Positions 13,147 through 62,684 of a stretch of DNA of 64,000 bases are shown here, in pieces. Each line of letters opens with the position of its first letter. Within the stretch, counting starts at the first letter, position 1. The stretch is from the NCBI GenBank assembly GCA_039818205.1, contig JBCBUK010000001.1, positions 480,001-544,000 of the forward strand, read 5' to 3'. The notes below the pieces were generated by a model that ran no database searches, had not been told where the DNA came from, and saw nothing but the letters and a program-made list of their open reading frames with translations. The position numbers were made by a program, and so were the translations under genes. Source of the DNA: Verrucomicrobiota bacterium (GTDB lineage: Bacteria; Verrucomicrobiota; Verrucomicrobiia; Opitutales; Cerasicoccaceae).

Positions 13147-13150
13147 ATCG

Positions 13151-15148: not shown

Positions 15149-15208
15149 CGTGTATAGGTATTCTATTAACATGATAGCACTTTGCGATCAAAACGCTAGG
15201 TCATTGAC

Positions 15209-25133: not shown

Positions 25134-26216
25134 TTATTCGTCTGCTATCTCGGCTTCTTCTTCAGGAGGCCACTCAACTTTGAGCAGGATCTTATCTACG
25201 AGGCGCTTCGCCGTCGTGAGCTGATCGGTGTCGTAATATAACTCACCAGGCGGAACCGAGCTACTTCCGCTATGACTGGTTAAATCCATAAGGTAATATT
25301 GGCGGTCATCACTCGGATAAATCAACGCTTCATAGATTACCGAGGGTTGCCCAATCCCCGGGCGCGTATACCCGTCATTAGACTCGATCTGTCCCGCGTG
25401 AAAGAAGTCATTGTCATCATTCGGCGCGTTGACCTCCACGTAGACGACAAACGGGATCGCATCCATCTTAAGGTGGCCATCCAAGGAAAAGTCGCGCGTT
25501 GGTGTTGCCGAACTCACGGCGTCCAGATCCTCCTCGGGTTCCTGACCAATTATGTCTTGGTAGCGCTCATACCAAATCGGCAGAACTTCATTCCGGTTCC
25601 GTTGGTGACCGCCAAATTCCTGATCGTTGGACATCGCTGAGTCCTCAGTCACATATAGCGTTTCCAGGACTGTGCCATCCTCCGACTCAGCCCAGATCGC
25701 GAGCTGGGGGTGTCCATCGCCCCATAGGTCAGTCTCATCAACATCTGGGCCAAAGGAATCGCCCCAGTCAAACTCCAGTCGTAGACTCGCCCCCTGGTCG
25801 TTTATCCGTTTGACCTTTAAGCCATCGTCAATCGGCATATACGCAGTGTCCCGATTGGGACGAAAAATATCCCGTGCATGCTGGGACTCGTGGCTCGCGC
25901 TAATCAAGAGCGGAATCGGCCACCAGTTCCACAACGAGGCCGCAACGGCATACAGCCAAAAAATCAGCACGCTGCCTAACAGTGTGATGGGTGAGCCTTG
26001 CTTGCCCTTAGAACGATTGCGCGGCTTCTTGATCAACCCCCAGAAATACTTTCCCCGAGACGATAAATGCAGCGTGATAAAGATAACCAGCGCGAAGCCG
26101 GATACGATATGCAACCGCGTGACAACCAAATCGAAAGGCTGAAAGAAACGAAGCATTCCGGAAATGGCCAATGTTGCAAAGAAGAACAACAAGGAGACGT
26201 TAACGAAATGCTTCAT
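25134..26216 (-). CDS. Membrane protein: N-terminal His-pair (DUF4405-like) TM domain fused to a DUF2271-like extracytoplasmic domain
   Basis: Three TM segments with H36 and H50 on one helix, then PQLAIWAE..DG..LETLYVT, LPIW, DAVSSATP, YVEVN, GQPSVIY. Confidence 0.6.
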   Translation of the reverse strand: MKHFVNVSLLFFFATLAISGMLRFFQPFDLVVTRLHIVSGFALVIFITLHLSSRGKYFWGLIKKPRNRSKGKQGSPITLLGSVLIFWLYAVAASLWNWWPIPLLISASHESQHARDIFRPNRDTAYMPIDDGLKVKRINDQGASLRLEFDWGDSFGPDVDETDLWGDGHPQLAIWAESEDGTVLETLYVTEDSAMSNDQEFGGHQRNRNEVLPIWYERYQDIIGQEPEEDLDAVSSATPTRDFSLDGHLKMDAIPFVVYVEVNAPNDDNDFFHAGQIESNDGYTRPGIGQPSVIYEALIYPSDDRQYYLMDLTSHSGSSSVPPGELYYDTDQLTTAKRLVDKILLKVEWPPEEEAEIADE

Positions 26217-31684: not shown

Positions 31685-32542
31685 TCATGGTCGCACACTA
31701 GGCGGATGCCCAAAATGCGCCTTATACGCACGACTGAAATCATTGAAATGATGATATCCAAGGAGGAAAGCGACTTCCTTTACCTGCATCCCCCGTTCAT
31801 TCAACATGCGCGCAGCATGATCCATGCGCAGACAATGAAAGAAATCTGCCGGACTTCGATTAGTGGCTGCCTTGAACAATCGATACAGCGATGACTGGGA
31901 AACATCCAGATAGTCACACAAACGAGCAATCGGCTCCTTACTATCTAGGTGCGTCTTCATCCATTGTTGCGCCTGCTGAAACCGCTTCTCACTCTGGTCA
32001 CCCCCGGCCTCTGATTCAATCAGTCGCTCAACTAGGATCTCAAAAATCAATCGACACCCGTGCAGGTATTTAAGCGTTCGTTCATTGTAGTCGAGGACCT
32101 CGCGCCGGCATTGATTATGATTCTGCCGAAACGGCTGGGACTTACCGCGTGGTATCCGCCGAATAAAATGTCCATCACGATCGGCATTCGGAGAAAAATC
32201 GCTGCTAAACTCGGTCCACATCCATTGCAGAAATTTGCAGTTACTATCATCGATTGAAGCCCAGCCAAACGGACAATCCGGGCCGATAAAAACCAACTGC
32301 CTCGGTGCCAATCGCACCGTCTTCCCACGAATCACCATGCTTGGCGTCCCTTCTTCGATCACCGTGCAAACCCAGCCATCGTGCTGACATTCCGGCAAAA
32401 ACTCTTTGCTGAAATCACGCCTCCCCCAAGCCAAGTATCCCAGCTGGGACCCGGAATCCGCGTCTGCCTTCCAGAAAGAGCGATCTTTTGTCGGCAAGTA
32501 GAGACTTCTGTAATCGGTTTCCAATATAGCATCATTAGTCAA
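31685..32542 (-). CDS. AraC-family transcriptional regulator (cupin sensor)
   Basis: C-terminal VSQSSLYRLFK...VKEVAFLLGY..FNDFSRAYK..FG.PP; divergent from the oxygenase operon; TTG start. Confidence 0.9.
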   Translation of the reverse strand: MTNDAILETDYRSLYLPTKDRSFWKADADSGSQLGYLAWGRRDFSKEFLPECQHDGWVCTVIEEGTPSMVIRGKTVRLAPRQLVFIGPDCPFGWASIDDSNCKFLQWMWTEFSSDFSPNADRDGHFIRRIPRGKSQPFRQNHNQCRREVLDYNERTLKYLHGCRLIFEILVERLIESEAGGDQSEKRFQQAQQWMKTHLDSKEPIARLCDYLDVSQSSLYRLFKAATNRSPADFFHCLRMDHAARMLNERGMQVKEVAFLLGYHHFNDFSRAYKAHFGHPPSVRP

Positions 32543-32650: not shown

Positions 32651-34957
32651 ATGAGCACCCTTACCGCAGAGAAAGAACGCTTGCCCAACGACCCACCGGT
32701 CCAACCGATGGACTACAGTTTGATCGGCACGGAATCCAAACGGGCAATCGAACAAGGCTTAGCCGAGGCGGATTGGTACACGACACCCATTCCGCGAGAA
32801 GAGCTGAAACAACTGCTCACACGAAGAGATTGGCCCGCAATTCGCGACTGCTTCATATACTTTGGGCTGATTGCTTTTTTCGGCGTAGCCACCTACAGCC
32901 TTTGGGGAAGCTGGTGGGCCTTCCTACCAATGATGGCATACGGAATCCTTTGGGCCTCAGCCTCGGATGCCCGCTGGCATGAATCCAGCCACGGCACGGC
33001 TTTCAAAACCGATTGGTTGAACAACCTATTGTATGAAGTCGCATCCTTCATGGTTCTACGCGAATCAGTTCCCTGGCGTTGGAGCCATACTCGACACCAT
33101 AGCGACACGATCATTGTTGGACGCGACCCCGAGATCGCAGTTCCCCGCCCACCCAATCTCCGGCAGATGCTCCTTAAGTGCATCAACTTCCAAGCCTTTC
33201 GTCGCTATCTCAAGAACATCACCCTCCACAGCCTTGGACGTGTTGCGGCCGAAGAAGCCGCCTTTATCCCCGAGAGCGAATACCCAAAGGTCTTCCTAAG
33301 AGCACGTATCTATGCCACGATCTACCTGGCAATTATCGCATTGGCGATCGTCTACCAAACCTGGCTTCCCTTCGTGTTTGTCCTGGGACCCAATCTCTAT
33401 GGGGCTTGGCTCATGCCCATCTACGGGTGGACCCAGCATGCGGGCCTCGCTGAGAATGTCCTCGACCACCGGCTCAACTGCCGGACGATTTCGATGAACT
33501 TCGTTCATCGCTTCCTTTACTGGAACATGAACTACCACCTGGAACATCATATGTTCCCGTTAGTACCCTACCATCAATTGCCGAATCTACACCAACTAAT
33601 CAAAGACGATTGTCCAGCGCCCTACCCAGGCTTAATCGCGGCCTACAAAGAGATCATCCCAACAGTACTCCGGCAGATCAAGGACCCAGGATACTACGTT
33701 AAACGGAGCCTGCCTGCCTCGGCAAAATCGACCCGAAACCATGACAATAGAAACAGCACCATTGAAGCTCGAGACACGGGGAGCGGCTGGCTCGACCTGG
33801 GCGCTGCGGATCGACTCTATCCCAATGAAATAACTCGGCTAGACCACGCAGGCCGCACCTACGCAATCTATCGCACAAAGAGCGGGCACTACTACGCGAC
33901 CGATGGCATCTGCACCCATGGCAATACTCACCTCGCGGATGGCTTTCTCAAAGGTGAAACCATTGAATGCCCAAAGCACAACGGGCGCTTTAACATTAAA
34001 GATGGCGCAGCCGTTCGGCATCCGGCCTGTGTTGCACTGAAGACCTATCCCGTGAAAGCAGATGGCGGACGCCTCCTTATCAATCTTGAAGCTGCCAGCG
34101 GCCTCGGCGCGAAAGAGCAGGCGTATCAACTCCGCGTAGTTCGCTCGCAGTACGTTGCCACATTTATCAAAGAAATAGTACTAGAACCCGCCGAGGAGAA
34201 TGGGTTGCCAGACTATCAGCCGGGGCAATATCTCCAATTTGAGATCCCAGCCTTCAACGAGATCTCGTTCAGTAACTTCAATGTTCCGGAACCTTATTCC
34301 TCAGTCTGGAAAGCTAACCATCTCTTCGATTATTGCTCAACAAACTCGGCAATCATTCGCCGCAATTATTCCTTAGCAACCTCTCCGCAAGCTGCGAAAA
34401 ATGAACTGCGTTTCAATGTTCGCATCGCAACGCCGCCTCGGGGGCTCGACTGCGACGCTGGTGTCGGCTCAAGCTACATGCACAGCCTAAGCGCAGGCGA
34501 TATCGTAACAGTCTACGGCCCCTACGGCGACTTCGAGATCAAGGACAGCGAGCGAGAAATGGTTTATATCGGCGGCGGCGCGGGCATGGCCCCGCTACGC
34601 TCGCACATCTCACATCTATTTAATACACTGCGCACAAAACGCACGGTTAGCTATTGGTATGGAGCCCGCTCGAAGCAGGAAGTGTTTTACGAAGAATACT
34701 TTCGCGCCCTGGAGAAATCGTTTCCGAATTTCACGTTTCACATTGCGCTTTCCGAACCCCAGGAGAACGACAATTGGGATGGCCCAACCGGATTCATCCA
34801 TGAGGTCGTGCGGGAACGATTGCTGTCTGAGCACCCGAATCCAGAAGGCCTCGAGTATTACTTATGTGGCCCGCCACCAATGATTCAAGCCACCCAAAGT
34901 ATGCTCACAGACGAGTGGGGCGTCTCCCAGAACAACATTGCCTTCGACGAGTTCTAG
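32651..34957 (+). CDS. Fusion of a MocD-like membrane di-iron (fatty acid desaturase family) oxygenase, a MocE-like Rieske ferredoxin and an NqrF-like FAD/NAD(P)H reductase
   Basis: His boxes HESSH, HTRHH, QH, HLEHH (aa 1-355); Rieske CTH...CPKH (aa ~378-480); RRNYSLA, GVGSSYM, GGGAGMAP, YLCGPPPM, terminal FDEF (aa ~490-768); one uninterrupted frame. Confidence 0.88.
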   Translation: MSTLTAEKERLPNDPPVQPMDYSLIGTESKRAIEQGLAEADWYTTPIPREELKQLLTRRDWPAIRDCFIYFGLIAFFGVATYSLWGSWWAFLPMMAYGILWASASDARWHESSHGTAFKTDWLNNLLYEVASFMVLRESVPWRWSHTRHHSDTIIVGRDPEIAVPRPPNLRQMLLKCINFQAFRRYLKNITLHSLGRVAAEEAAFIPESEYPKVFLRARIYATIYLAIIALAIVYQTWLPFVFVLGPNLYGAWLMPIYGWTQHAGLAENVLDHRLNCRTISMNFVHRFLYWNMNYHLEHHMFPLVPYHQLPNLHQLIKDDCPAPYPGLIAAYKEIIPTVLRQIKDPGYYVKRSLPASAKSTRNHDNRNSTIEARDTGSGWLDLGAADRLYPNEITRLDHAGRTYAIYRTKSGHYYATDGICTHGNTHLADGFLKGETIECPKHNGRFNIKDGAAVRHPACVALKTYPVKADGGRLLINLEAASGLGAKEQAYQLRVVRSQYVATFIKEIVLEPAEENGLPDYQPGQYLQFEIPAFNEISFSNFNVPEPYSSVWKANHLFDYCSTNSAIIRRNYSLATSPQAAKNELRFNVRIATPPRGLDCDAGVGSSYMHSLSAGDIVTVYGPYGDFEIKDSEREMVYIGGGAGMAPLRSHISHLFNTLRTKRTVSYWYGARSKQEVFYEEYFRALEKSFPNFTFHIALSEPQENDNWDGPTGFIHEVVRERLLSEHPNPEGLEYYLCGPPPMIQATQSMLTDEWGVSQNNIAFDEF

Positions 34958-34975: not shown

Positions 34976-35956
34976 ATGAACTACCAACCATTTGGACAGA
35001 CTGGGTTCCAAACCTTTCCGATTGCCTTTGGCGCCATGCGCATTGAGGCCAATGAGCGAGGTTACTCAAGCCCCCTCCTCCACGCCCTCGAACGTGGAAT
35101 TAACTTCGTCGACACCGCGCGTAACTATGGCCAAAGCGAAGAGGTCGTGGCCCGCACCCTCAAAGAATGGCGAGGCGAACAACCCTTTATCGCAACCAAG
35201 GTTAAACCGCTCGACGTAGCGAACTGGCGTTTCTACGTCCCCCTCGAAGAGCAGTTTACACCAGAGAGCATCCGAGCATCTGTTGAGACAAGTTTAACGA
35301 CACTGGGCATCGACTGCATTGACCTTATTCAGCTGCATCAATGGTATTACTTATGGTCGCATCGACCGGAGTGGCTTGAATCCCTTCTAAGTTTACAGAG
35401 TGAGGGAAAGGTTCGATTCATTGGCGTTAGCGCTCAGGACCACGAGCACGATGCCATCCTCCCTTTGATAGATAACAATGTCGTCGACGCGGTTCAGATC
35501 TTCTTCAACGCCTTCGAATCTCGGCCGCGTGTGAGCGCCCTTCCGTTGGCTCAACAATGCTGTGTCGGCGTTATTGGGCGATGCACCTTTGACCACTCAG
35601 GATCGCTAGCAACGGGAGGCAATCGAGAGACTCTCGCCGAGGACATAAAACTCGCCAATGCGTCTAAAGAGATCGTGACCGAATACCTCAATCGAATCGA
35701 TCGGCTCCGCTCCGAATTTTGCGACGGCGATTGTTCGTTGGCCGAGCTCTCAATCCGTTTCGCCCTTTCCCACCCAGGCATGTCAAACCTCGCAATCTCA
35801 CTGGCGGACGAGTCTCAAGTAGATGCCGCAATCGTGGCTGCCGACCGAGGTCCACTCCCGCAGGAGATCGTGGAGCGAATCACCAAGGACCACGTTTGGG
35901 TCAAAAACTTCTATTACTTTAGCCGGAGGACAGTCGATGGAAACTCTAGCCAATGA
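34976..35956 (+). CDS. Aldo/keto reductase
   Basis: FVDTARNYG.SEE, IATKV, IDLIQLH, GKVRFIGVS. Confidence 0.88.
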   Translation: MNYQPFGQTGFQTFPIAFGAMRIEANERGYSSPLLHALERGINFVDTARNYGQSEEVVARTLKEWRGEQPFIATKVKPLDVANWRFYVPLEEQFTPESIRASVETSLTTLGIDCIDLIQLHQWYYLWSHRPEWLESLLSLQSEGKVRFIGVSAQDHEHDAILPLIDNNVVDAVQIFFNAFESRPRVSALPLAQQCCVGVIGRCTFDHSGSLATGGNRETLAEDIKLANASKEIVTEYLNRIDRLRSEFCDGDCSLAELSIRFALSHPGMSNLAISLADESQVDAAIVAADRGPLPQEIVERITKDHVWVKNFYYFSRRTVDGNSSQ

Positions 35957-36671
35957 TCACCCTCAGCCAATACCAGTGAGTTTCGTGTTTGATGATGGCT
36001 TCACTGCCAGTTGCCTGAAGATCGCCGACGTATTTGAGTCTCGCGGCCTACGGGCAACCTTTGCCGTATTAGTCGATCACGATGGCTTTATGCCGGACTT
36101 TCCCAAAGGAGACTTTCAGCTCTGGAACGAACTCCTCGACCGTGGCCATGAAATCCATCCTCACGGTTTGGACCATTCCGATCTGACAACAATCTCCCAT
36201 GAAGACGCCGACCGTATGATCGATGATTGCTTGAACTTTTTCCAAGAGAACCTTTCTGATTTCAAGGTAGCCGACACCGTATACCACCTCACCTACAATC
36301 GGTCGACACCCTCAATAGACTCTCACCTTCTGAATCGTGTTGCTGCCATCCGAACCAACGGGAAAACTAGCAAATCCGGAACAGGGCTCAATACCCTTAA
36401 CGATCTTAGCTCGCGCATTATCAAGTGCACTGGACACGGCCCGGGCCACTGCGACGAACACCTCCAACAGTGCCTCAGCCATGCTGAGGAATCCAACGCT
36501 GCTCAATTCTGTTATATGCTGCATGGTCTAGACAATGAAGGCTGGGGCCCAATCAGCCAACAAGGCCTCGAAGAATCGCTCGACACAATACTGGTATCGA
36601 ATCGCTTGTTCTATCAACCCATCGGCTCCTTTGTTCTTGAGCATGTAAAACCAGCCTCAGCGAATGGATAA
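35937..36671 (+). CDS. Polysaccharide deacetylase (NodB/CE4-like) domain protein
   Basis: SFVFDDG, RATF, GHEIHPHGLDH, MLHG; ATG 35937 preceded by GGAGG; no signal peptide. Confidence 0.75.
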   Translation: METLANDHPQPIPVSFVFDDGFTASCLKIADVFESRGLRATFAVLVDHDGFMPDFPKGDFQLWNELLDRGHEIHPHGLDHSDLTTISHEDADRMIDDCLNFFQENLSDFKVADTVYHLTYNRSTPSIDSHLLNRVAAIRTNGKTSKSGTGLNTLNDLSSRIIKCTGHGPGHCDEHLQQCLSHAEESNAAQFCYMLHGLDNEGWGPISQQGLEESLDTILVSNRLFYQPIGSFVLEHVKPASANG

Positions 36672-37689
36672 GATTAAAACCGCAATAATCGGCTATGGGC
36701 GAACGGCCCAAAACCTGCACGCAGCTGGCCTGCGCTCCAACAGCGAATCGTTTCAGGTCAACGCCGTTGCAGGTGTAACGCCAGGCAATCTCGAACAGGC
36801 AAAAGCAGATTTTAACTGCGAGACCTACACGAACTATCAGGCGATGCTCCAGGAGCAAGATCTCGACTTGGCCATCGTAACGACTCGCAATCACCAGCAT
36901 TGCAGCATGGCTATTGATGCGCTCAATAGCGGCGCGCATGTTCTGGTTACCAAGCCAATTGGCATCAACCAAATAGAGGTTGAGCGCATCTATGACGCAG
37001 CGGAGAAGGCTGGCCGCAAAGTCTTCCCTTATCTGCCAGCGCGGTGGGGAAGCGACTTTCGCCGCATCCAGGAGATCGTTAACTCAGGAGAGATCGGCAA
37101 GGTCTTTTCAATCCGTCGTTCAGTGTATGGCTTTGCCACCCGTGATGATTGGCAAACAGAAACCCAATCGGGTGGTGGCATCATCCTCAACTGGGGAGCG
37201 CACCTGATCGATCCACCAATGCAAATCGCCGGCGGTAACCCCAAACAACTTTATGGGTCATGTAGACGACTTCTCAACTCCGGTGATGCCGAAGACTGCT
37301 TCTACTCGATAATCGAAATGGACAACGGTATTCGAGTCCACGCGGAGTGGTCGTTTGCGCCAAAGGGCTTGGCGAATTGGTTTGTCCAAGGAACCCGTGG
37401 CGCTATCATCGTCAACGGAACGCAGCTTGAAGTCCATGCTGGCGAGCCGTCAAAACCAAGCGACCCCACCTGTTTCAAAAACATGGAGGGCAACGGATAC
37501 AACTCACGAGAGGAAACGCTCAGCGACGCAATCTACGGAGACCCCGTTGAGATCTATCGTTCGGTGGCTCAAGACCTATTTCACCGCATTCCGTTTCCCA
37601 TTGTAAAGAATGATGTAGTCCAACTCACTCGGGCGATGGACGCCATCAAGGTCGCTCAAAACTCCAGCCAACTGATTCAATTATCATGA
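36664..37689 (+). CDS. Gfo/Idh/MocA oxidoreductase
   Basis: IIGYGRTA, HVLVTKP, GGGIILNWGAHLID. Confidence 0.9.
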   Translation: MDKIKTAIIGYGRTAQNLHAAGLRSNSESFQVNAVAGVTPGNLEQAKADFNCETYTNYQAMLQEQDLDLAIVTTRNHQHCSMAIDALNSGAHVLVTKPIGINQIEVERIYDAAEKAGRKVFPYLPARWGSDFRRIQEIVNSGEIGKVFSIRRSVYGFATRDDWQTETQSGGGIILNWGAHLIDPPMQIAGGNPKQLYGSCRRLLNSGDAEDCFYSIIEMDNGIRVHAEWSFAPKGLANWFVQGTRGAIIVNGTQLEVHAGEPSKPSDPTCFKNMEGNGYNSREETLSDAIYGDPVEIYRSVAQDLFHRIPFPIVKNDVVQLTRAMDAIKVAQNSSQLIQLS

Positions 37690-38615
37690 TTTTTTTAACC
37701 GGTTTCGCCGATGAAGCGGCCGACAATATTGACGGGCAGATTCGCGCGATTCAGCAGCTTGGCTGGTCGCACATCGAGCTGCGTTCGATCGACAAGATTA
37801 ACATCACCGATATCCCCAACAAGGACTTCGAGATCGTCGCCGACCAAATCGAAAAGGCCAACCTTCAAGTCAATGCCTTTGGCTCGACGATATGCAACTG
37901 GGGAAAGTCGATTCTCGAACCGATGGACCGGGATCTTGAAGAGATCGAACGCGCAATCCCGCGAATGCAAGCACTGGGCACGAGGTACGTTCGGATCATG
38001 AGCTATGGCGTGCTCCGCGACCGCGATCCAAACGATCAATTTGTTGAAGAACGAATCAAGCGACTTAACCAAGTCGTCGAGCGTTTTGCCGACGCTGGAT
38101 TGCAAGCATTGCACGAGAACTGCGCCAACTATGGCGGGATGGGCTGGCAGTTCACTCAGCGGCTCCTCGACGGCGTGCCCGGACTTCAGCTGATCTTTGA
38201 CACCGCTAACCCAGCAACAACCTTGGACCGCTCAAAGCCGATGCCCTACCCCACGCAATCGCCATGGGAGTTCTATCAGAATGTGCGCGATCACATCGCC
38301 CATGTGCACGTTAAAGATGGGCGCTTCATCGCCGACAATCCTGACTCGATTTTCGAAGACGCAGAATACGTTTGGCCCGGTGAAGGCGACGGTGACGTCA
38401 AACGTATCGTCGAAGACCTCATCCATAACGGGTACCAGGGTGGCTTCAGCATCGAGCCTCATCTGTCCGTCGTCTATCATGACGAGAACCAGAACAGTCC
38501 CAAACAATACCGATTCGAGAGCTTCATCGAATACGGCAAGCGCCTAGAACGAATCATCGACGAAATTCGAAACAACGCCGCAAGCACCCAACCGACCGCC
38601 ACTAAACTCCCATGA
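37686..38615 (+). CDS. Sugar-phosphate isomerase/epimerase (xylose-isomerase-like TIM barrel)
   Basis: TGFADE, IELR, LHEN, FDTAN, HVHVKD, PGEGDG, SIEPH. Confidence 0.88.
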   Translation: MIFLTGFADEAADNIDGQIRAIQQLGWSHIELRSIDKINITDIPNKDFEIVADQIEKANLQVNAFGSTICNWGKSILEPMDRDLEEIERAIPRMQALGTRYVRIMSYGVLRDRDPNDQFVEERIKRLNQVVERFADAGLQALHENCANYGGMGWQFTQRLLDGVPGLQLIFDTANPATTLDRSKPMPYPTQSPWEFYQNVRDHIAHVHVKDGRFIADNPDSIFEDAEYVWPGEGDGDVKRIVEDLIHNGYQGGFSIEPHLSVVYHDENQNSPKQYRFESFIEYGKRLERIIDEIRNNAASTQPTATKLP

Positions 38616-39931
38616 GCTCCGCGAACCAAACTCCGGCCGAAAGCAAAGAACGCATGACGCCCTACCATTGGACGGTCGTCATCCTCGCCTCTCTCGGTTG
38701 GCTTTTCGACTGCATGGACCAACGCTTGTTTGTCCTCGCCCGCGAAGCCGCAGTAAACGCCTTGGTTGGTGACACCGTTGATGCCTCCCTTATCAAAACT
38801 TACATTGGCTACGCGACGACTTCGATGATTCTAGGTTGGGCGACTGGCGGTATCATTATCGGTATGTTCAGCGACCGATATGGACGCGTCAAATCCCTGG
38901 CAATCACTCTGATCCTCTACTCCCTTTTTACTGGCCTGTCCGGTATCGCCCAAAGTTGGAACGAATTCATGATTTATCGCTTTGTTGCCGGTATCGGAAT
39001 CGGTGGCATGTTTGGCTCAGCGACGACTTTGGTCGCGGAGTCTATTCCGGGAAGGTTCCGCCCGGTTGCGCTCGGGGCGCTGCAAACTCTCGCCGCCCTA
39101 GGCAATATCATGGGCTCGATGGTCTCGCTCGTTATTCCCCCAAGTGCTACCGAAACGTTCATCGGATTTGAAGGTTGGCGCACGCTCTTCTTTATCGGAA
39201 TAATCCCAGCGCTTCTCGTTGCTCCCATGCTCGGCTTTTTGAAGGAACCTGAGCCATGGATCAAAATGAAGGAGGACCTCCGCAAAGGGGTTACAGGGAC
39301 AAAAGCGGGCTCACCAATCGAAATGTTTCGCCATCCCACTTGGCGCAAGCACGCCTTGATCGGCCTCTTCCTTGGCGTCGCTGGTATGGTTGGTCTTTGG
39401 GGTATCGGGTTCTTCTCACCGGAACTCATCTCGACAGCACTTGAGGGCGAACCACAGGACAAGATCGATCGGGTCCGAGCTTGGGGAACCGCGCTACAAG
39501 ACATTGGCTCCTTCTTGGGTATGGCGGCCTTTACCACGATCGCAACGATGCTCAGTCGTCGGCTCGCTTTCCTCATGTCGTTCACGCTTTGCTTCGTGAC
39601 TACCGTATTCGTATTCAACTCCCTGAATTCAGCATCCGACGCCTACTGGATGCTCCCAATAATGGGATTTGCTCAGCTCTCATTGTTCGCCGGTTACTCC
39701 ATATATTTCCCCGAACTTTTCCCGACCCGCTTGCGTGGAACCGGCGTTGGATTCTGCTATAATACCGTACGATATCTTGCCGCACCGGCTCCAATCCTAC
39801 TCGGCTACCTCAGCACTTTGCTGCCCTTCAGAATCGCCGCAAGTATCATGGCCGGTATTTACATCATGGGAATCATCGCACTTATCTGGGCACCTGAAAC
39901 GAAAGGCAAAGCCCTGCCTGAGGACGACTAG
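38612..39931 (+). CDS. MFS transporter
   Basis: GWLFDCMD, SDRYGR, RFVAGIGIGG, PELFPTRLRGTG, APETKG. Confidence 0.93.
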   Translation: MSSANQTPAESKERMTPYHWTVVILASLGWLFDCMDQRLFVLAREAAVNALVGDTVDASLIKTYIGYATTSMILGWATGGIIIGMFSDRYGRVKSLAITLILYSLFTGLSGIAQSWNEFMIYRFVAGIGIGGMFGSATTLVAESIPGRFRPVALGALQTLAALGNIMGSMVSLVIPPSATETFIGFEGWRTLFFIGIIPALLVAPMLGFLKEPEPWIKMKEDLRKGVTGTKAGSPIEMFRHPTWRKHALIGLFLGVAGMVGLWGIGFFSPELISTALEGEPQDKIDRVRAWGTALQDIGSFLGMAAFTTIATMLSRRLAFLMSFTLCFVTTVFVFNSLNSASDAYWMLPIMGFAQLSLFAGYSIYFPELFPTRLRGTGVGFCYNTVRYLAAPAPILLGYLSTLLPFRIAASIMAGIYIMGIIALIWAPETKGKALPEDD

Positions 39932-40188: not shown

Positions 40189-41340
40189 ATGAGAAAAAAC
40201 CGTCTCGTATGGGCTGTACCTGTGTGCTGTCTCATCGCATCACTATCGACTACCTCAATGCACGCGGCAACGCGTTACCTCTCGAACTATTCCGGCGACT
40301 TCAAATCACGCATGACCGCTGCGGTCAATCAGTCCAGCAGTGGCGACGTGATTAGCGTCAACGTAAACCTCAATGCAAATAGTCCCTACACACTGACCAA
40401 GAGCGGCCTAACCTTGACCGGCAACGGAACAATAACCGCAAACGGCAGCAAAATACTCAACCTAAAGGCAAGCAATACCACCATCAAGAACATCACGTTT
40501 AATGGTGGAACCCGCACGATTGATGTTACCTCAAATGGAACCCTGAACAACATCACCTTTGACAATGTGAAGGTGAAAAACGGGCCTTACCGAGGCATTG
40601 GTTTCTATGAAACCAATATAAACAACATTACGGTCAAAAACTGTACCTTCACGAACAAACCGTTCTCTGTGGAGATCCATGACTGCGCGATGGCCACGAA
40701 TGTGACCATCACCAACAATACCTTCAACTCGAGTGATCATCAGGTTTCGCTCGATTGTGCCGACCTCGGGAACAACCTGAATCACAGCAACATCCGCATC
40801 ACTAACAACACCTTCAACGTGACGGCTCGCCATAACCTTGCGCTGGCAAACATGAAGGCCAGCCTAATCAAAGGGAATGTTATGAAAGGTGGAACCGCTG
40901 GCTACACCCAGTGTGTGCACATCGAAGACCGCACCCGAGGAGCCTACATCAAGGAAAACCAAATGACTAACTGGGGCAATGGAAGTGGCTCTGGCGATGC
41001 CGTGATCATCTACACAACCGATCGATTCGGTCACGGAACCGGCGCTCTCCTTACCCCACAACAAAAGCGCGCCTACGCATCTGGTCCCGTATCACTCGAG
41101 AATAATACGATCATTGGCGCCGGGCGGCATGGCGTGCTGATCAGCTACTTACAAGGGAAAGCCAACTTTTGGGGAAATAACCAAACCCTCAAAGGAAACA
41201 ACAAGGCGATCTTCAAGAGCAACATCGTGAATACCTCCCAGCTCAACATCGCAGATTCAACCAAGTTCAAAAACAATCGGACTTGGGGCGTCTTAAAGAA
41301 CTGGTCGCCCAGCGCAAGAAGCGGTTACGTCAACTTCTAG
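40189..41340 (+). CDS. Secreted right-handed parallel beta-helix protein
   Basis: Signal peptide; repeated NITF/NITVKNCTF/NVTITNNTF/NIRITNNTF units; Asn-rich. Confidence 0.75.
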   Translation: MRKNRLVWAVPVCCLIASLSTTSMHAATRYLSNYSGDFKSRMTAAVNQSSSGDVISVNVNLNANSPYTLTKSGLTLTGNGTITANGSKILNLKASNTTIKNITFNGGTRTIDVTSNGTLNNITFDNVKVKNGPYRGIGFYETNINNITVKNCTFTNKPFSVEIHDCAMATNVTITNNTFNSSDHQVSLDCADLGNNLNHSNIRITNNTFNVTARHNLALANMKASLIKGNVMKGGTAGYTQCVHIEDRTRGAYIKENQMTNWGNGSGSGDAVIIYTTDRFGHGTGALLTPQQKRAYASGPVSLENNTIIGAGRHGVLISYLQGKANFWGNNQTLKGNNKAIFKSNIVNTSQLNIADSTKFKNNRTWGVLKNWSPSARSGYVNF

Positions 41341-41355
41341 CAATACAATAACGCT

Positions 41356-42171
41356 ATGGCGAAACACCTTCCGTTTTGGTTGGGCTTTGCTGCGCTTACA
41401 TTTCTCCTCGGGTTCTACACCCGAGGAGTTATTGCGACTGCGCCGCAAACGCCAAGCCCTTTGGTAATTTCCGATCTACCAATTCCATCGACCTCCGATG
41501 ATCGAGAAGACACTCACGTTGAACGCCTAGAGGCCGAACTCGAAACCGAATCGGCGCTCGAGCCGATTGATTTGGTGATCTTTGACCCCGATAACCCGGT
41601 GGAACGGCTGCAGGCACTTGAAACCGTCCGATACGAACTGCCAGGCTCCGCGTTCAACCGACTCGTTCCCGACGCATTCGACGATGAACATCATATTTCC
41701 GCGGAAATGCGGGCACTGATGGATCTATCCGAAGAAGAAACTGAGCAGCTAAATGGAATGCTCGACCGGTCAATGATGGAGCTCCGTGCTATCGAAGAAG
41801 CTCAGGTTGTCGCAAGAGTCGGAAAAAATGGCGAGCTTACGTTCACAATTCCTCCCTATCCAGACCAAGGGCTCAAAGTTCGGGCGGCACTTTTGCGGAA
41901 CATCGAATCAGGCCTGGGCGAATCACGCCGACACTTATTCGAAATGATGCTCATTCAAAAACCGTCTTCCTTTGGTAACTTCGGCAAGGACACCATCGCA
42001 GTCCGAAATCCAACCTTTGAAACCGTCAACGGCTGGCGCGAAATCGTTACGATCCAAGTCGGCAAAATGGTCGACATTGGCACCGAAGACGAGCGCTTCG
42101 AAGGCGTCGAACGCGCATTTCTACCAGCCGCATTCCAAAAACGCTACGGACATTTCTTCGACTTCGAATAA
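41356..42171 (+). CDS. Hypothetical protein with N-terminal membrane anchor
   Basis: 271-aa ORF 15 bp after the beta-helix gene; hydrophobic N-terminus and Pro-rich linker; no family recognised. Confidence 0.7.
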   Translation: MAKHLPFWLGFAALTFLLGFYTRGVIATAPQTPSPLVISDLPIPSTSDDREDTHVERLEAELETESALEPIDLVIFDPDNPVERLQALETVRYELPGSAFNRLVPDAFDDEHHISAEMRALMDLSEEETEQLNGMLDRSMMELRAIEEAQVVARVGKNGELTFTIPPYPDQGLKVRAALLRNIESGLGESRRHLFEMMLIQKPSSFGNFGKDTIAVRNPTFETVNGWREIVTIQVGKMVDIGTEDERFEGVERAFLPAAFQKRYGHFFDFE

Positions 42172-42218: not shown

Positions 42219-43055
42219 TTACCGAGGCGGAGCCTCATAGACGGCATCTTTGAAGTCGTCACGATCTTCCATCTTGATCTTCACGACATCGTCATCAGAG
42301 ATGTTTGTAACTTGAACTGCATCGTCAGGAATCGCAAATGAGCGATATGTCACCCGCTCCGGATTCCGGGAGTCCTGGAACACGATGATCAAATGTCGAC
42401 CATCCCGCTTTACTGCATAGCGCTTTTTTTCAATAACGTAGCTTTCTTCATTATTGAAACCAGCCATCGCAAACGGCACGAAAAAGCGCCGCGTGTCACC
42501 TGAAAACGAGTAGTCCTTCAAACTCATGGGAACGATATCTGCAATCGTTTCACCGACCATTGCCCGAACGGTCTGCTTACTGAAATTAATGATGCGAACC
42601 TTATTTTTCCCAAAATCATAACCACCGATGTCGACTGCCCGGGCGGAAAGGCGCCGCTGCGAATTCGGAGTCATAATAATCAGCTTGGTTCCAGGTTTGC
42701 CAAGGTCGACCCTTGCCATCGGTTGACGAACCATACCACCCTCGCCATCAGGAACCTCCTTAAAAAAGGTGAGGACACTTGAGCCATTGGAATAGGACAT
42801 GGCGCGCGATAGCTGATTCGGGTAAGCAGCCACTTGGTAGACCTCGTCGCCGTTCGTAGCGAACTTGAGATCAACACCAGAATCCAATACGCCGCTACCA
42901 ATATCGTTTTTCGCGAAATACAGGACATGAAAAATGTAGCGATCAGCTTTCTCGTCAGCAGAACCGCGATTTTGGGCCAACAGCCCCACAGACGGGGCTG
43001 TCAACGAAATGCAAACAAGCAATATAAAACCTATAGTCTTCTTCGAAAAGGACAT
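42219..43055 (-). CDS. Hypothetical secreted protein, probably co-transcribed with the PilX-like gene
   Basis: Signal peptide from ATG 43055 (alternative TTG 43076); beta-rich, VRIINFS motif. Confidence 0.7.
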   Translation of the reverse strand: MSFSKKTIGFILLVCISLTAPSVGLLAQNRGSADEKADRYIFHVLYFAKNDIGSGVLDSGVDLKFATNGDEVYQVAAYPNQLSRAMSYSNGSSVLTFFKEVPDGEGGMVRQPMARVDLGKPGTKLIIMTPNSQRRLSARAVDIGGYDFGKNKVRIINFSKQTVRAMVGETIADIVPMSLKDYSFSGDTRRFFVPFAMAGFNNEESYVIEKKRYAVKRDGRHLIIVFQDSRNPERVTYRSFAIPDDAVQVTNISDDDVVKIKMEDRDDFKDAVYEAPPR

Positions 43056-43082
43056 GAGAAATAGCGTGAGAGACAATCGTTA

Positions 43083-46000: not shown

Positions 46001-46781
46001 CATCCTCATCAACGGTAACCGAGGGGTCAGCAAACTGGGCGATTGAAGCGTCGTAATATCGAAGATTGTCCGCAGACGCTCCTTGGTAAGGACTATCCAT
46101 GTTGACGCGTGCTTTTACACCGTCGTCACTAACCCAGTATGCATAATAACCGCTCAGGAAATTCTCGGCGTCGCGAATTTCAACGCGAGGCGCCTGAACA
46201 GTCTCTTCCGGACGATTCACAGAAACGTCCTCGGTTGCTAGCGCAACCCTATCTGCGGCGACATTATTAACGTCGGGGTTTTCTCCACTCACTAGCCACT
46301 GGACGTTATTATTATCCAAACCTACCAGAACATCAGTCGCGTCGTTAAGCGGATTTCCAGATTGGTCCAGCTTTGACGACCAAACACCGGTCCAATGCGC
46401 TTGCCCTTGAGTGATGTTCACGGTTGGACCACCCGGATCAAAAATCACGTCTGCCCGAGCGGTAACTCGCTGGTCGGGGCCGGCTAGCTCTTGCAGTTGG
46501 GCGAGCGCCGTCATGGCTCCCATGCGGGCATTCATTTTCGCTTGCTCTTCGGCTTTGGAAATCGTCGCTGTTGCGGTCTCGACTTTCACCATTGTTACGA
46601 GGCTCAAGACGAGGAGAACGATGAAAGCCATCAATCCAAGGGCGATCACAAGGGCGAAGCCACCTTCGGACCGACTGCGCGGCGCTCGAAAGCCGCCACG
46701 GTTACCGTCAACACCGATGGACCCAGATCGTAGAGGGATGGCTGATCCAAGGGTGTGCGGGGGTAAATTACTAGTTTTCAT
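43083..46781 (-). CDS. Giant PilX/GspK-type minor pilin-like protein (Verru_Chthon cassette protein A-like)
   Basis: G|FALVIALGLMAFIVLLVLSL prepilin-like segment without Glu+5; GPDQRVTARA, YAYWVSDDGVKA, GGFNVNSTSVAAW, LTARSDTFTIRSFG, FGRKFEVVSFRWL. Confidence 0.75.
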   Translation of the reverse strand: MKTSNLPPHTLGSAIPLRSGSIGVDGNRGGFRAPRSRSEGGFALVIALGLMAFIVLLVLSLVTMVKVETATATISKAEEQAKMNARMGAMTALAQLQELAGPDQRVTARADVIFDPGGPTVNITQGQAHWTGVWSSKLDQSGNPLNDATDVLVGLDNNNVQWLVSGENPDVNNVAADRVALATEDVSVNRPEETVQAPRVEIRDAENFLSGYYAYWVSDDGVKARVNMDSPYQGASADNLRYYDASIAQFADPSVTVDEDGNRRFSPGNSAAVSLWRNESTPVVSVADNESISLLTEDNDKADLQREFFHEFTVDSKSVLTNVKDGGIKRDLSTALEVLPNDLTGPIFPAITGGGVQDGDPGGPTWEQLADFYQESVAGNPGTGINFELQDNDTNAIAPIMTRFHFIVQVFADRKSVVSSQTEDLAIDYQYSVGIFPLITLWNPYDEDMTIPDLGLETDMRGVFLVDHRGLNGQAPNINNPGDDNLADLINKWGSHFTHPQDQNRNMIGFRIQGGVIPAGEARTYTPSVNSFMDFGDYTNNVLSEGAGGSLVTGFFSQPRNIPPKTPAAGSAGVDTTTIPFKFNEADPNSKSRIAFAPHANVDLQVTNLYSAPFEDDANPDLRFLAVIGAGPGVYYRTSKAPRVVDIRELDSGFTSFNDFVFPAGSSATEGNTGISDVDLNIVESWATTLIGTGLRMKFANTEGPEYDYWNEQTVHLLSQMNPRAPYVTDQAHVRSMRGLPNSGRTFIYRLYGTNPTAWWDSSNTQTSNYLGGVDSGVAYVGLGHDDGAEQGSDQMILFQAPTRPPVGIGQFMHANLMNVDRVGHSLDGNSWYSNMQQPFTMPTYAIGNSIANIHLPLTETSLAINDTSGFFNGGPRGMPNNYNGAHYDYSYLLNEALWDEFFMSSIIPSLNPGVSFPLPNGRMIKKNNSVTTGDLLDNTRAAANLYLEGGFNVNSTSVAAWESILGALRDVQTLGQASVSQDLRHNFARFAAPKLSSTGEKPDYNDAGIDSLVAGYRNLSDNQITALANSIVDEIKTRSAARGYPFLSLGAFVNRSIDASDVSQSDRRRFAYTGPLQFAIEQSEINGRPALNETWGTQLGDGLWNIDYITAPLPTETAPYYGESLEVVRNRPFIDGAPGSLTQADVLAKIGPALTARSDTFTIRSFGSAVDPLTGQETAKAYCEMVVQRSPDFVDPSNRSFDDPANFSAVNEQFGRKFEVVSFRWLSENEI

Positions 46782-58082: not shown

Positions 58083-59711
58083 TTAATTCTTCAGGCCCGG
58101 ATAGGTTCCCGGCAGGTCATCCAGATACTCGACCAAGAGCTCCTGCATAGCTTTTAACTGCGTAGCATACTCCGGGTTCTCTGCCAGGTTCGTGTTCTCC
58201 GTTGGGTCGTCCTTGAGGTTGAAAAGCTGGTCTTGATCGAAGTAGCTGGATGCCCAAGGTGTATTCTCTGGATCCTTAAGCTGCCAGCGTTCAAAGCGGA
58301 AGCCACCGGGCTGCATCCCTAATTGGAAATACGGAGCATCTTCAAGGAATGGGTAGTCTTCCGCCATCCAAGGAGCTTCTTCAAGCATCTCCTGGTAATA
58401 GATTTTTGCATCGGCAACGCGCTCTGCTTTCGTGCGTTGCAAGCTTGGTGGAACATAAAACGCTACGTAGCTCCAGTCCGCAGTAGACACCGCGCGAGCC
58501 AGTCCGATCTCGCTGTAGACCGCTTTGCGCCAGTCGTCTGGGCTCTCACCACGGAAAATCGGCATGAGGCTATCGCCATCGAGCATCATGTTTTCGGGTG
58601 GCTCAATACCAGCTATCTCAAAGAAGGTCGGACCAAAATCCACGTTCTGAACCAACTCCTGCGGCCGTGCACCGGGCTCGATCACACCGGGCCAGTAGGC
58701 CATAATCTGAGTGCGAATACCACCTTGGTAGTTCGTTCCCTTGGAGTGATACTCCATACCATTATCATTGAAGTAAACAATCAAGGTATCCTCAGCGATG
58801 CCAAGCTCATCAAGCTTATCCATAATCGCGCCGATCCCGTCATCCAACCAGGTTGCTGCCGCGTTCTTGCGCGGGATACCAGCCGCTTTCGTACGCTCCA
58901 CGACTGACTCCCGTGATGGCTGCACACCGGTAATTGGTTCATCAAGCACACCCATTCCGCTTAGGCGCGGATCACCAGTCAATGATGCATAAGTATCCGG
59001 CACGTGCATGAGGGTTGGCGCAAAATAGAGGTACCAGGGCTCATCCTTGTTTTCCTCGATAAAATCAATGGCCGCTTTCGTGTTCCACTCCTGATTATGA
59101 ACATTGCACTTCGTGTTGATCAAGGACTTGTCGTCATCAGGGTTGCCACCATAAACAGCGGCAGCGAAGTCAAAACCGAAACGTTTGATCTCGTTGGCAA
59201 TAATCTCCTGGTTCTTCCGCATCACCGCTTGAACTTCGGGATCATACGGATCGCTTCCAGGCGCAATCGGCTCGATCAGGTGCATCGTTCCATTGAGGTG
59301 CCACTTACCCGAGAAGCCCGTTTTATAACCAGCATCTTGGAGGACGCTCGGAATGTTCGGTTGCCCCTCGGCAAAACCGAGATTCCAGAGGATGCGGGTA
59401 ACGCCATCCTCAGTAGTCCCCTCGGCAAAGTATGGCTGAGGGCAACGACTCGCGAAGTGACCGCTCATGCAGGTATAGCGACTGGGCGAACACACGCTTG
59501 ATGAAACAAAGCCGTTTTCGAAGTAGATTCCCTCGTTGGCCAGCCGATCGATATGCGGCGTCAACGAGTCTCCTCCGAGAAAGCCGAAGTGATCACGGAA
59601 CTGATCGTCCGTGATGATAAACAAGATATTGGGCTGCTTGCGCTCAGCCGAAGCAATGAGGCAGACGGCAGTCAACAAACCAAAAACAAGTGCGCTAATT
59701 TTTTTAACCAT
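58083..59711 (-). CDS. S1 sulfatase (paralog of 15301-16977)
   Basis: [27 protein letters not shown]; start overlaps the GH117 stop. Confidence 0.93.
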
Positions 59712-60780
59712 GATATTCTCCTATTTCGCTCCAAGGGCGGTGACTTTCAAATCGACGGATATAATTCCAATTCCAGCTCGCATCGTATTGATGACAAAGC
59801 CCCCAATCCAAACCGGCCAATGGAGACTTGTTCGCATCGAGATTCTTAACCAGACCAGCTGCTTCTGGCCCCCACTTGATGTGGGACATGATTTCAAAAT
59901 TTACGCCGTCTTCGGCAAACTGCATGGTGTTCTTCTCAGGCCCATCGGTGATCAACATCGCCGCGACCCCATCTTGATAGTTCCAGGCACATACTTCATG
60001 CCCACTGTTTGTAATGGGGTTATAGGGTGACTTAATGTAGGGTCCTTCGAGTTTGTCGGCAATTGCGACGCCCCATTTGATCTCACGCCCACCGAACGTG
60101 AGTTCTTCGCCCATGGTCTCACCCTTATAGTAGAGATAGAATTTGTTGCGGAAGAAAAGCAGGCACGGGTCATGCGTCTTGTGGCTATCAAAGTCACCCT
60201 TCTCCAATACCGCAAAGCGGTCGTCCTCCTCGCCTTTCCATACCCCATTGGTTGCCGGTGAGAGGATAGGCGCGGGCAACTTATTCCAAGGCCCATGCGG
60301 TGAGTCCGCGATCGCCATGGCGATCTCTTCCTTAACGCGGTTAACGTAGGGCGCCTTCACCGTTTGGTAAACCAGGATAAACTTCCCATCGTGCGCCAAA
60401 ACCTCGGGCGTGAATACCGCGCGGTCATCGTAGGCACCCGCTGGGCCGTGGCCAATGGCACAGCCTTCTTCTTTCCACTCCCATCCGTCTTTGGATGAAG
60501 CATACCAGACTTCAGTCTTGTCCCACGGGAACACCTTAGCCTCGGGATCGCCCGAGCCAAAGCCCAACGTTTCGCCCACGCCCTTGGTGTACCAAGTGTA
60601 GTAAACGCCATCCACTTCCAGAACGGCGCTGGGATCGCGTCGAATAACGCCCTCTTCAAAGGCAAAATCGCCACCGAGGTCATAGAGTTTAAATTCGGTG
60701 AACCACTCGGAGCTCTTTTTATCGTAGCCACGTTCGATGGCACGCTTGGATGCAGCACTTAAGGGTTTCTCTTCGCTCAT
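59704..60780 (-). CDS. GH117 alpha-1,3-(3,6-anhydro)-L-galactosidase (neoagarobiose hydrolase-like), no signal peptide
   Basis: LSAASKRA N-terminal motif, [40 protein letters not shown]...GPY.KS.YNP.TNSGHE, DGPEKNT.Q. Confidence 0.9.
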
Positions 60781-60783
60781 AAC

Positions 60784-62631
60784 TTATGATTGTTCAATCA
60801 GATTAACTTGTAAAACGACGCAAGCCACCTTGCCTCCAGTATCCGGATAGATAATCTCCACGGTGTTCTCTTCGCGGACGTATTCCATAGGCACAGGCAC
60901 TTCGATCATACCAAAAAAGTTTGCGCGACCGGCTTGATCATCTCCGGCCCAATTGTCGGGAATTTGTAAGTCATAACCATTGAACTCGATCGAATCAGGC
61001 AGCACTTGCTTGCCCAACTCGCGACCAGGTGAGAGGCGCAGAATCGCACCACCGGCCCCGGTAGGCGTATCGACAAATGTAAACTCAATCGGTTCGCCCG
61101 AATTAATATCTTTTAGATAGTCAGTGGCATAAACACGGTGTTCGGCAACCCGGCCGCGGATCCCAACGGGTTCCGGCAAATCGACAATGATCATCGCTCC
61201 CATACCAGGGAGTAAGTTCATTTGATGGGGAATTTCTGGAAGGACCATTTCACCAACGCGAGGCTGCTCGCCATTAGTCGTCAATACGCGAGCGGTGATG
61301 GCGACTGGCTCCAGGTCCTCGAGACCGGAAAGCTCCAGCAGCATGTTTTCGTGAGCCAGATTTGCGAGGATAACCCAAAGTCGATTACCGTCGTTTAACA
61401 AGTGCACCCGAACATCGGGGTTTGAACTCTGGCTTACGCGCCACTGCCCTTCCACCCCTTTCCAAAACTCATAGAAAAGCATGAGGTCCGTCGTCACGAA
61501 ATTTCCCTCAGCAGTCCGGCGCCAAAGTAAAAATGGATTAGCCTGCCCTGGCTCGCCCGTCCCCTTCAAACTGTAGGTCCAAAGCGCCTTCCCCAACACA
61601 AACGGAATCGTTTTCAGGAGGCGGTCTGGGTGATCCATGTAAGTCATATTCTGGCCGTTGATCGAGTAAAGCATCCCACCCGAGCGAGCGGGGCTATAAT
61701 CCATCATACCCATGTTGCCCTCTGGGATCTTGCCGTACTCAGTAATCATGAGCGGCTTGGCGACACCAAACTTAATGTGGCTGTAGGTATCGATCAAATC
61801 CATGATCGCCTCAGAATTACTTCCAGTGCGATCGCGCGGCGTGCCCTCAACGTTGACACCGTCGTATACATGGTAGGAAAAGAAATCCATGTTCTCTCCC
61901 GCGATATCCATGAAGGTCTTTTGCCAATTGTTCCAATGATCAAAGTTTCGGGCCTCAACCTCGACCCATGCTGCCGAGTACCCACCAACCATCACATCGG
62001 GATTCAATTCGCGCACCCGCTTGGCAACCACGTTGTGCTGCTCCGATAGCCGCTGGACATCGGTCCCGATCTTCTTCGCCTTCACAAAGGGCTCATTGAA
62101 TACCTCGATGTATTTCGGGCGCTGATCATGGTCGTAGTAATGTTTCAGAAACTGAGCGGTAAACTCGGCAACGCCTTCGTAAGTGCGTGGCCCCCACGCT
62201 GCGTGATCATTGTCCGGCATTGCATGCATGAGCTCCGGATGCGTGCAAATCACCAACTCCCGCATGTGCTCGGTCGTTGCCGCAGGAAAGCCGCTTAAGT
62301 GTTCACGCTGGCGCTTACCCTGCTCTGCCATCTGCTCGACATCCGGCATATCCGGGTTGTCGGCACTCGCGCGGATGCCCTTGGCTGTGCCAGATAGGTT
62401 GCCGCCGTCTCGCCCATAACGAGCATCCAGCTCGTTGCCGAGATAGACCCGCTCCTCTTTCGTCAAGGAGCGGGACCCAAAGTTCTCGTGGACTGTAATA
62501 AACTGATTGCGATCAAACTCTGTCACACCGCCGATATCGCGGATATAGTCAGGAGCTAACTGAATTTCCACAAGCTCGTCCTGCCCGACCAATAGAGTTG
62601 GAATCAGGGCAAACAGCGTGAAGAGTCTCAT
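60784..62631 (-). CDS. GH86 beta-porphyranase/agarase-like glycoside hydrolase
   Basis: [65 protein letters not shown], resembling porphyranase-A-type GH86. ATG 62631 (alternative TTG 62640). Confidence 0.85.
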
Positions 62632-62684
62632 CGTGATCAATCAGTGTTTAAAGCGCGGAGTAATTCCGCCCGTTTAGGTTAATA

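Follow-up and report, generated by a model that had tools for sequence, protein, structure and literature searches.

What does a protein do that carries a membrane oxygenase domain, an iron-sulfur carrier and a flavin reductase in a single chain? The question is raised by an open reading frame (ORF) in a stretch of 64,000 nucleotides from a Verrucomicrobiota bacterium (assembly GCA_039818205.1, contig JBCBUK010000001.1, positions 480,001 to 544,000; hereafter the window), which at positions 32651-34957 of the + strand encodes 768 amino acids without an internal stop. This protein, hereafter the fusion, probably removes methyl groups from sugars. We propose, with evenly balanced confidence, that it is a self-sufficient, NADH- and O2-dependent membrane di-iron O-demethylase for a methylated monosaccharide derived from polysaccharide breakdown, here probably not 6-O-methyl-galactose. 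The protein and its domains are predicted as follows, with the evidence in brackets:

32651..34957, + strand: 768-amino acid fusion of a MocD-type di-iron oxygenase, a Rieske ferredoxin and an NqrF-type FAD/NAD reductase (translation, Pfam, NCBIfam, homologues, AlphaFold2)
32909..33628, + strand: membrane His-box di-iron domain of the MocD clade, residues 87-326 (PF00487, MocD of the rhizopine locus L118, fold matches)
33788..34051, + strand: MocE-like Rieske [2Fe-2S] ferredoxin domain, residues 380-467 (PF00355, TIGR02377, MocE)
34121..34957, + strand: FNR-family FAD/NAD reductase matching the FAD domain of NqrF, residues 491-768 (TIGR01941, Foldseek match 2r6h)

A first-pass annotation, made from the sequence alone, had read three domains into this one ORF and proposed a scan with domain models, and Pfam indeed recovered FA_desaturase at residues 87-326 (E 1e-32), Rieske at 380-467, FAD_binding_6 at 552-629 and NAD_binding_1 at 640-749. 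The 13 ligand residues it had named are all in place: nine di-iron histidines (H110/H114, H146/H149/H150, H263 and H296/H299/H300), which form three His boxes with a single His between the second and the third, and the Rieske ligands C421/H423/C440/H443. In an alignment of 117 sequences (the query plus 116 homologues, namely the best 119 less three long sequences), 12 of the 13 ligands are invariant, with all nine histidines present in 117/117, and C440 is kept in 116/117. Hydrophobic segments lie near residues 61-85 and 216-250. The AlphaFold2 model of the full-length protein shows three ordered domains (mean pLDDT 83.9, pTM 0.58). Because reductase matches filled the Foldseek search with this model, the N-terminal domain (N-domain) was also modelled alone (pLDDT 91). 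Its best fold match was 8xks_K, presumably a desaturase-like subunit (Z 19.4, root-mean-square deviation (rmsd) 3.6 over 292); the scores were Z 11.4 against AlkB 8sbb_A (rmsd 4.5 over 259, 14% identity) and Z 4.3 against SCD1. The reductase domain superimposed on 2r6h and NqrF FAD domains with an rmsd of 1.3 Å and 45% identity. Altogether, sequence and model show three intact redox modules, with all their metal ligands, in one membrane-bound chain.

Databases tell a different story, since 31 of the 34 homologues that bear a name are labelled NqrF, a mislabelling that had been foreseen. The fusion indeed passes the cutoff of the nqrF model TIGR01941 (321 bits, cutoff 295), and its FAD/NADH domain is as close to those of NqrF as the structural match suggests. 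However, the match is confined to model positions 129-403 of 405, and therefore the anchor helix and the plant-type 2Fe-2S domain of NqrF (within positions 1-128) are absent, as the first-pass annotation had also observed. The genome of the window (99.97% complete) gave no match to nqrB (nqrA, C, D and E were not searched), and the fusion gene is its sole above-cutoff nqrF match. On these grounds the label is wrong, and the fusion is almost certainly not subunit F of the Na+-translocating NADH:quinone reductase (Na+-NQR). Whatever its function, the family thus produces false Na+-NQR annotations.

The fusion is not a chance join, because 118 of its 119 best homologues span at least 96% of it, at 58-69% identity. 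A genome scan gave 601 candidate stretches, 587 of which were confirmed; the locus counts given throughout refer to the best 80 of these 587. These loci come mostly from Verrucomicrobiota and Acidobacteriota, with some from Planctomycetota and Bacteroidota. The spread is patchy: among 400 sampled genomes of the window's phylum, 26 have a match to the N-domain with E 1e-100 or lower, in two cases within short ORFs. As a reference we used L118, a true rhizopine locus by its MocR (764 bits, cutoff 650) and its above-cutoff MocE. The fusion is 49% identical to MocD of L118 over 353 amino acids (E 2e-123) and 50% identical to its MocE, the two domains following in the same order, and the Rieske domain has the MocE model TIGR02377 as its top-scoring Rieske model (123 bits, cutoff 136). 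No significant similarity was found to MocF of L118 (E 3.6), which matches HcaD/AndAa and is a glutathione-reductase-type ferredoxin reductase. The first-pass name of a MocD-MocE-reductase fusion is hence apt as to descent from MocD and MocE, but the reductase is unlike MocF.

The phylogeny against MocD that had been called for was built with FastTree from 129 N-domains, leaving out fragments below 230 amino acids, duplicate loci and six short proteins without the anchor motif, and using two desaturases and no AlkB as the outgroup. Fusions, MocD and stand-alone homologues form one clade (support 0.998), within which the fusions are one group (0.873), sister to MocD; the window protein belongs to a subclade of 24 members (support 1.0). 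By sequence, the fusion is MocD plus MocE plus a different reductase, of the FNR/NqrF type. Passages of PMC13434037, PMC5132102 and PMC10107442 describe mocDEF as an oxygenase that demethylates 3-O-methyl-scyllo-inosamine, place mocDEF-like clusters in rhizobia and in woody-host Pseudomonas syringae, and call the cluster of P. syringae, beside xylA2, unresolved. The fusion differs from that system, which serves rhizopine catabolism in Sinorhizobium and Rhizobium, in being one chain instead of the product of three genes, in the type of its reductase, in a locus without mocABCR or a solute-binding gene and with an AraC regulator instead of MocR or LacI, and in its hosts, which are polysaccharide degraders. 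It probably works like MocDEF, yet falls outside that system as defined: it is a real, widespread variant of the MocDEF kind. A literature search, largely confined to freely accessible main texts, found no paper on the fusion, and passages of PMC9788770 gave no support.

Variants and distant relatives surfaced alongside. One fusion (P0048) is longer, at 928 amino acids, owing to an insertion of about 160 residues that separates the Rieske from the NAD domain; it has no further Pfam match. An 813-amino acid chain at L114:9575-12013 (G008:C1) joins a distant MocD-like desaturase domain (33% identity to the query) to rubredoxin and a rubredoxin-reductase-type domain, and looks by sequence like a second kind of single-chain oxygenase; its neighbours are a short-chain dehydrogenase/reductase, an altronate-dehydratase-like gene and an RraA-like gene. 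Eight distant stand-alone MocD-like genes (31-34% identity) occur in genome G046 (L092, L097, L101-L106, L115-L117), several of them near proteins that, judged by eye, look like phytanoyl-CoA-dioxygenase types.

The Pfam match to FA_desaturase and the AlkB-like fold (Z 11.4) could suggest an acyl-lipid desaturase or an alkane-type hydroxylase with fused redox partners. A precedent exists in an AlkB of the three-domain kind, where ferredoxin reductase and ferredoxin are fused N-terminally to AlkB; according to passages of PMC8918992 it is active and is mislabelled in databases as desaturase or reductase. Because this active protein is known, self-sufficiency in the His-box superfamily would not be new in kind. 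The fusion resembles it as a mislabelled, one-chain membrane di-iron protein with its own redox domains and a related fold (14% identity), but its redox domains are C-terminal, with a Rieske-type carrier and an NqrF-type reductase, and its catalytic domain belongs to the MocD clade and lies among sugar genes rather than in an alkane context. Moreover, the fusion is only 20% identical (E 0.003) to the DesA-like desaturase of its own genome, against 49% to MocD; with DesB, its top lipid-desaturase model, it reaches 43 bits (cutoff 500); and its N-domain branches far from both desaturases in the tree, which included only these two and no AlkB. A lipid or alkane substrate is therefore very improbable, as the first-pass annotation had judged for lipid desaturases.

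Evidence on the reaction is indirect and comes from the genes around the fusions. Sixteen of the 80 loci have one-carbon (C1) or methyl-handling genes no more than 10 kb away (E below 1e-20), namely fdhA in five, URO-D/MtaA-like genes in eight (three of them with MtaB, MtaC and RACo) and FdhF/YdeP in three. In a genome-wide control, 14 of the 80 genomes held 15 copies of fdhA, five of which lie within 10 kb of the fusion where 0.04 were expected; the one copy scanned was above the TIGR02819 cutoff. At L111 the fusion lies upstream of FdhD and FdhF, and at L110 (G010:C37:874000-893999) a corrinoid methyltransferase set, ferredoxin, P450, galM, fusion, FdhD and FdhF share 20 kb. The most frequent neighbours are galM (28/80 loci) and TIM-barrel proteins (33/80), with RhaT in five loci and RhaM in two; such neighbours point to free aldoses.

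Several loci add to this picture. L110, L135 and L136 (the last two in G090) each combine a CYP236-like P450, a fusion and URO-D/MtaA-like or full corrinoid methyltransferase genes, and are candidate methyl-sugar islands with aerobic and anaerobic demethylases. At L109:7447-9768, a glycyl-radical (PFL-like) enzyme is encoded immediately upstream of a fusion that belongs to the same subclade as the window protein, and is possibly an anaerobic counterpart for the same substrate. At L005:74-13316, a fusion accompanied by a rhamnosidase, a sialidase-like protein, two GH2 and RhaT resembles a rhamnogalacturonan-II locus; this polymer carries 2-O-methyl-fucose and 2-O-methyl-xylose. In four loci on plasmids of alphaproteobacteria (L118:11737-13490; L085, L086, L121), mocD/E(/F)-like genes are followed by a panB-like hydroxymethyltransferase gene, with purU after it in L118, downstream of the true mocDEF; a formaldehyde-handling role for the panB-like gene is possible.

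A P450 is known to demethylate the main methyl-sugar of seaweeds: CYP236A, ferredoxin and ferredoxin reductase form the demethylase for 6-O-methyl-D-galactose according to passages of PMC6292453 and PMC10033563. The first-pass annotation had seen no P450 and had offered the fusion as a P450-independent route. None is indeed in the window, but the genome has one, on another contig (C6:180551-181699), with E 3e-108 to PDB 6G5O (next P450, 3e-40), which is identified as P450ZoGa, CYP236A2, in PMC6292453. The C6 gene is flanked by a ferredoxin, an FoADH orthologue (E 2e-165 to 8H2A) and an esterase, the same set as in the published cluster (as far as described in the accessible part of PMC10033563), and so the premise that no P450 system was available falls. 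Four of the seven substrate-binding residues of P450ZoGa are identical (E62, R66, Q70, L267) and V58, F73 and M270 differ; passages of PMC6292453 report that V58 and F73 mutants lost binding. No reductase adjoins the C6 cluster (G000:C6:179427-182010, L081 and L107).

The survey of CYP236 co-occurrence that had been suggested showed enrichment, not depletion. Among 61 relatives, CYP236-like genes occur in 4/5 fusion genomes versus 2/56 others; in the phylum sample, in 6/26 genomes with a MocD-type domain versus 9/374 without (Fisher p 1.4e-4, kin not independent); and among the locus genomes, in 21/80. The fusion adjoins a CYP236-like gene at 3 of 17 P450 loci, in two genomes. Owing to this enrichment, the two systems can be said to have a tendency to accompany each other, and replacement of CYP236 by the fusion was rejected as a rule. 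They share the proposed chemistry (oxidative O-demethylation to sugar and formaldehyde), polysaccharide-degrading hosts and a dehydrogenase and a hydrolase as neighbours, as far as passages of PMC6292453 and PMC10033563 describe CYP236A; CYP236A is however a soluble, multi-component heme system, in contrast to the membrane di-iron fusion with its unrelated catalytic fold, and in the window genome the two coexist. A MocF-like reductase was found beside the P450 in 0/17 P450 loci, and no stand-alone one in the window genome. That the fusion reductase feeds the ferredoxin of the P450 is a weak lead, against which count the diflavin reductase alongside the P450 of L127 and the existence of P450 genomes without a fusion. 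Many genomes of Verrucomicrobiota and Acidobacteriota without a GH86 match carry CYP236-like genes too, which may therefore act on other methyl-sugars.

The immediate neighbours of the fusion, and two more distant glycoside hydrolases, are the following:

31685..32542, - strand: divergent AraC-family regulator, 108 bp upstream of the fusion (Pfam, locus comparison)
34976..35956, + strand: aldo-keto reductase (AKR), 18 bp downstream of the fusion (Pfam, locus comparison)
35937..36671, + strand: small hydrolase of the NodB/CE4 (polysaccharide deacetylase) family, its gene overlapping that of the AKR (Pfam, locus comparison)
36664..37689, + strand: Gfo/Idh/MocA-family NAD-dependent dehydrogenase (Pfam, NCBIfam)
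37686..38615, + strand: xylose-isomerase-like TIM barrel, AP_endonuc_2 (Pfam, locus comparison)
38612..39931, + strand: major facilitator superfamily (MFS) transporter, last gene of the putative operon (Pfam, NCBIfam)
59704..60777, - strand: GH117-type 3,6-anhydro-L-galactosidase, 25 kb off and outside the operon (PDB 3r4y, E 4e-161; 3p2n, E 2e-135)
60784..62640, - strand: GH86-type beta-porphyranase/agarase, 26 kb off (PF18040, PF18206)

From fusion to MFS there is a single gap, of 18 bp, and the remaining genes overlap; we infer that the six genes are co-transcribed. A scan for promoters and terminators stayed at chance level (6 vs 7.3 and 8 vs 9.5). AraC orthologues adjoin the fusion in L001-L004, L024 and L109, and the block of AKR, CE4, Gfo and TIM-barrel genes is repeated in 4 of the 80 loci (L001-L004). 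The AKR has no close characterised or solved relative (best PDB match E 7e-13), the Gfo dehydrogenase scores 76 bits with the iolG model (cutoff 355), and the TIM-barrel protein matched no NCBIfam family; a metagenome scan with the latter gave seven loci, with no fusion homologue among their ORFs of at least 230 amino acids. Full-length AKR genes occur in 10 of the 80 loci, in L119 and in the window, always adjacent to a hydrolase, which belongs to one of three unrelated folds (CE4, creatininase or alpha/beta esterase). The TIM-barrel types counted above as frequent neighbours (33/80 loci) were never seen with the AKR (0/10 vs 33/70, p 0.004, kin not independent). In pathway logic, a dehydrogenase plus a lactonase is an alternative to an isomerase for an aldose, and the AKR/hydrolase pair and the TIM-barrel proteins could be these two solutions for the product aldose, or the pair could serve C1 oxidation. 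For formaldehyde disposal by AKR and hydrolase, the relevant count is C1 genes in 0/10 AKR loci vs 16/70 others (p 0.20), and the alcohol dehydrogenase beside CYP236 does not detoxify formaldehyde according to the accessible part of PMC10033563.

The first-pass annotation had placed the fusion inside an agar/porphyran locus. The window does hold seven sulfatases, GH117 and GH86, and its genome has 12 matches to the GH86 C-terminal domain, but the two hydrolases lie about 25 kb from the fusion. In L001, the closest orthologous operon (fusion 69% identical), the genes stand among sulfatases up to 61% identical to those of the window, with a GH16 porphyranase (E 3e-64 to 3juu) at a distance of 3 kb and a GH86 at 15 kb. 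A link across the family was rejected: the proposed survey of GH86 showed no enrichment, with matches in 4/80 fusion genomes and, in the phylum sample, in 1/26 genomes with a MocD-type domain vs 4/374 without (p 0.29). The agar link is hence real for the window's subclade and not for the fusion family as a whole.

Put together, these data are compatible with the following scheme. NADH, the preferred donor if the likeness to NqrF is a guide, would reduce FAD in the C-terminal domain; the Rieske cluster would pass single electrons to the nine-His di-iron site, where O2 would be activated and a methyl C-H bond hydroxylated; and the resulting hemiacetal would collapse to free sugar and formaldehyde. 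From context, the MFS transporter would import the methyl-sugar, the AraC regulator would sense it, and the AKR, CE4 hydrolase, Gfo dehydrogenase and TIM-barrel protein would process the product sugar. The substrate here would most likely be a methylated unit of a sulfated red-algal galactan, for which 2-O- or 4-O-methyl galactose or anhydrogalactose are candidates, and it would be other than 6-O-methyl-D-galactose because a CYP236A-like system for that sugar is already in the genome; in that case the fusion would be a complement to the P450, not its substitute.

Sugar O-demethylation, as first suggested, thus keeps the support of genomic context and loses, for this genome, the argument from a missing P450. 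What carries it is the kinship with MocD, the nearest relative for which a function has been proposed, and with MocE; C1 genes, fdhA above all, that cluster at the loci; CYP236-like genes that co-occur with and adjoin fusions; neighbours that indicate free aldoses; and the position of the L001 operon close to porphyranases. A number of points weigh against it. Demethylation by MocD itself rests, in the accessible sources, on review passages that cite Bahar 1998. The C1 queries were drawn from the loci themselves, with a genome-wide control for fdhA alone; all five fdhA loci are from Acidobacteria and represent perhaps two or three independent arrangements; and a URO-D-family or FdhF/YdeP label is no proof that the protein acts as a methyltransferase or a formate dehydrogenase (TIGR01463 is below cutoff). 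The remaining 64 of the 80 loci and the window's operon lack a C1 gene, and in the window genome FdhA, Hps and Fhs gave no match, no above-cutoff FrmA was found, and formate-dehydrogenase-like genes were all below cutoff. Three of the four GH86-bearing fusion genomes are those of L001-L003, and 4 of the 5 GH86 genomes in the phylum sample lack a fusion. Finally, the L001 genome (G061; G172, 99% complete, has the same coordinates), with its operon and porphyranases, has no CYP236 match.

This last genome, which combines the same operon with sulfatases, GH16 porphyranase and GH86, favours another substrate: the fusion might be a P450-independent demethylase of 6-O-methyl-D-galactose itself, redundant with CYP236 here and replacing it in some relatives. 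The three altered residues of the C6 P450, two of them at positions where mutants lost binding (passages of PMC6292453), and the lack of a MocF-like ferredoxin reductase beside it would fit. Yet the C6 P450 retains E62, R66, Q70 and L267, its close match to 6G5O and its full set of flanking genes, fusion and P450 co-occur above chance, and galactose would presumably need no extra AKR, Gfo and TIM-barrel genes, so that we consider this reading unlikely. Still less probable is that the fusion, like MocD, demethylates a cyclitol or inosamine methyl ether such as pinitol, ononitol or rhizopine. The sister position to MocD, the superfamilies that the operon's Gfo and TIM-barrel proteins share with IolG and IolE, and one stand-alone homologue that adjoins iolG and iolC speak for it, but the Gfo score is far below the iolG cutoff, the TIM-barrel protein has no NCBIfam match, it is aldose genes (galM, RhaT, RhaM, glycoside hydrolases) that recur next to fusions, and the families common to at least three loci included no iol cluster. 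The His-box superfamily is chemically diverse, and the fusion might oxidise a sugar-like solute in some other way, by hydroxylation, by N-demethylation or by opening a different ether, for instance an anhydro or lactyl one; this would account for the many loci without C1 genes and for the CE4 or creatininase-type amidohydrolases that follow the AKR in 8 of 11 AKR loci and in the window. This reading does not say why fdhA, corrinoid systems and CYP236-like genes lie next to fusions, and we regard it as rather unlikely.

On a broader view, the fusion could found a widespread class of sugar O-demethylases, single-chain and with a non-heme di-iron site, as a second solution beside CYP236A. Its subclades would be tuned to different methyl-sugars (red-algal galactan units here; methyl ethers of rhamnose, fucose or xylose in soil and freshwater relatives), it would take the place of the P450 in those porphyran degraders that have none, and bacteria would have grouped it with corrinoid and P450 demethylases in methyl-sugar islands, of which L110 is an example; we hold this view tentatively, leaning slightly against it. 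Methyl ethers render sugars resistant to breakdown, and the family offers a demethylase candidate encoded by one gene, whose assay needs no partner proteins. It would also serve to test MocD chemistry and might be of use as a regioselective biocatalyst.

Elsewhere in the window, six long ORFs (13151-15187, 25134-26216, 40189-41340, 41356-42171, 42219-43076 and 43083-46781) have no Pfam match at E 1e-5; among them are a 678-amino acid, secreted-looking protein without a PDB match and a 1232-amino acid protein. A second, distant GH117/GH43-like protein is encoded at 12088-13221 (E 1e-11 to 3p2n).

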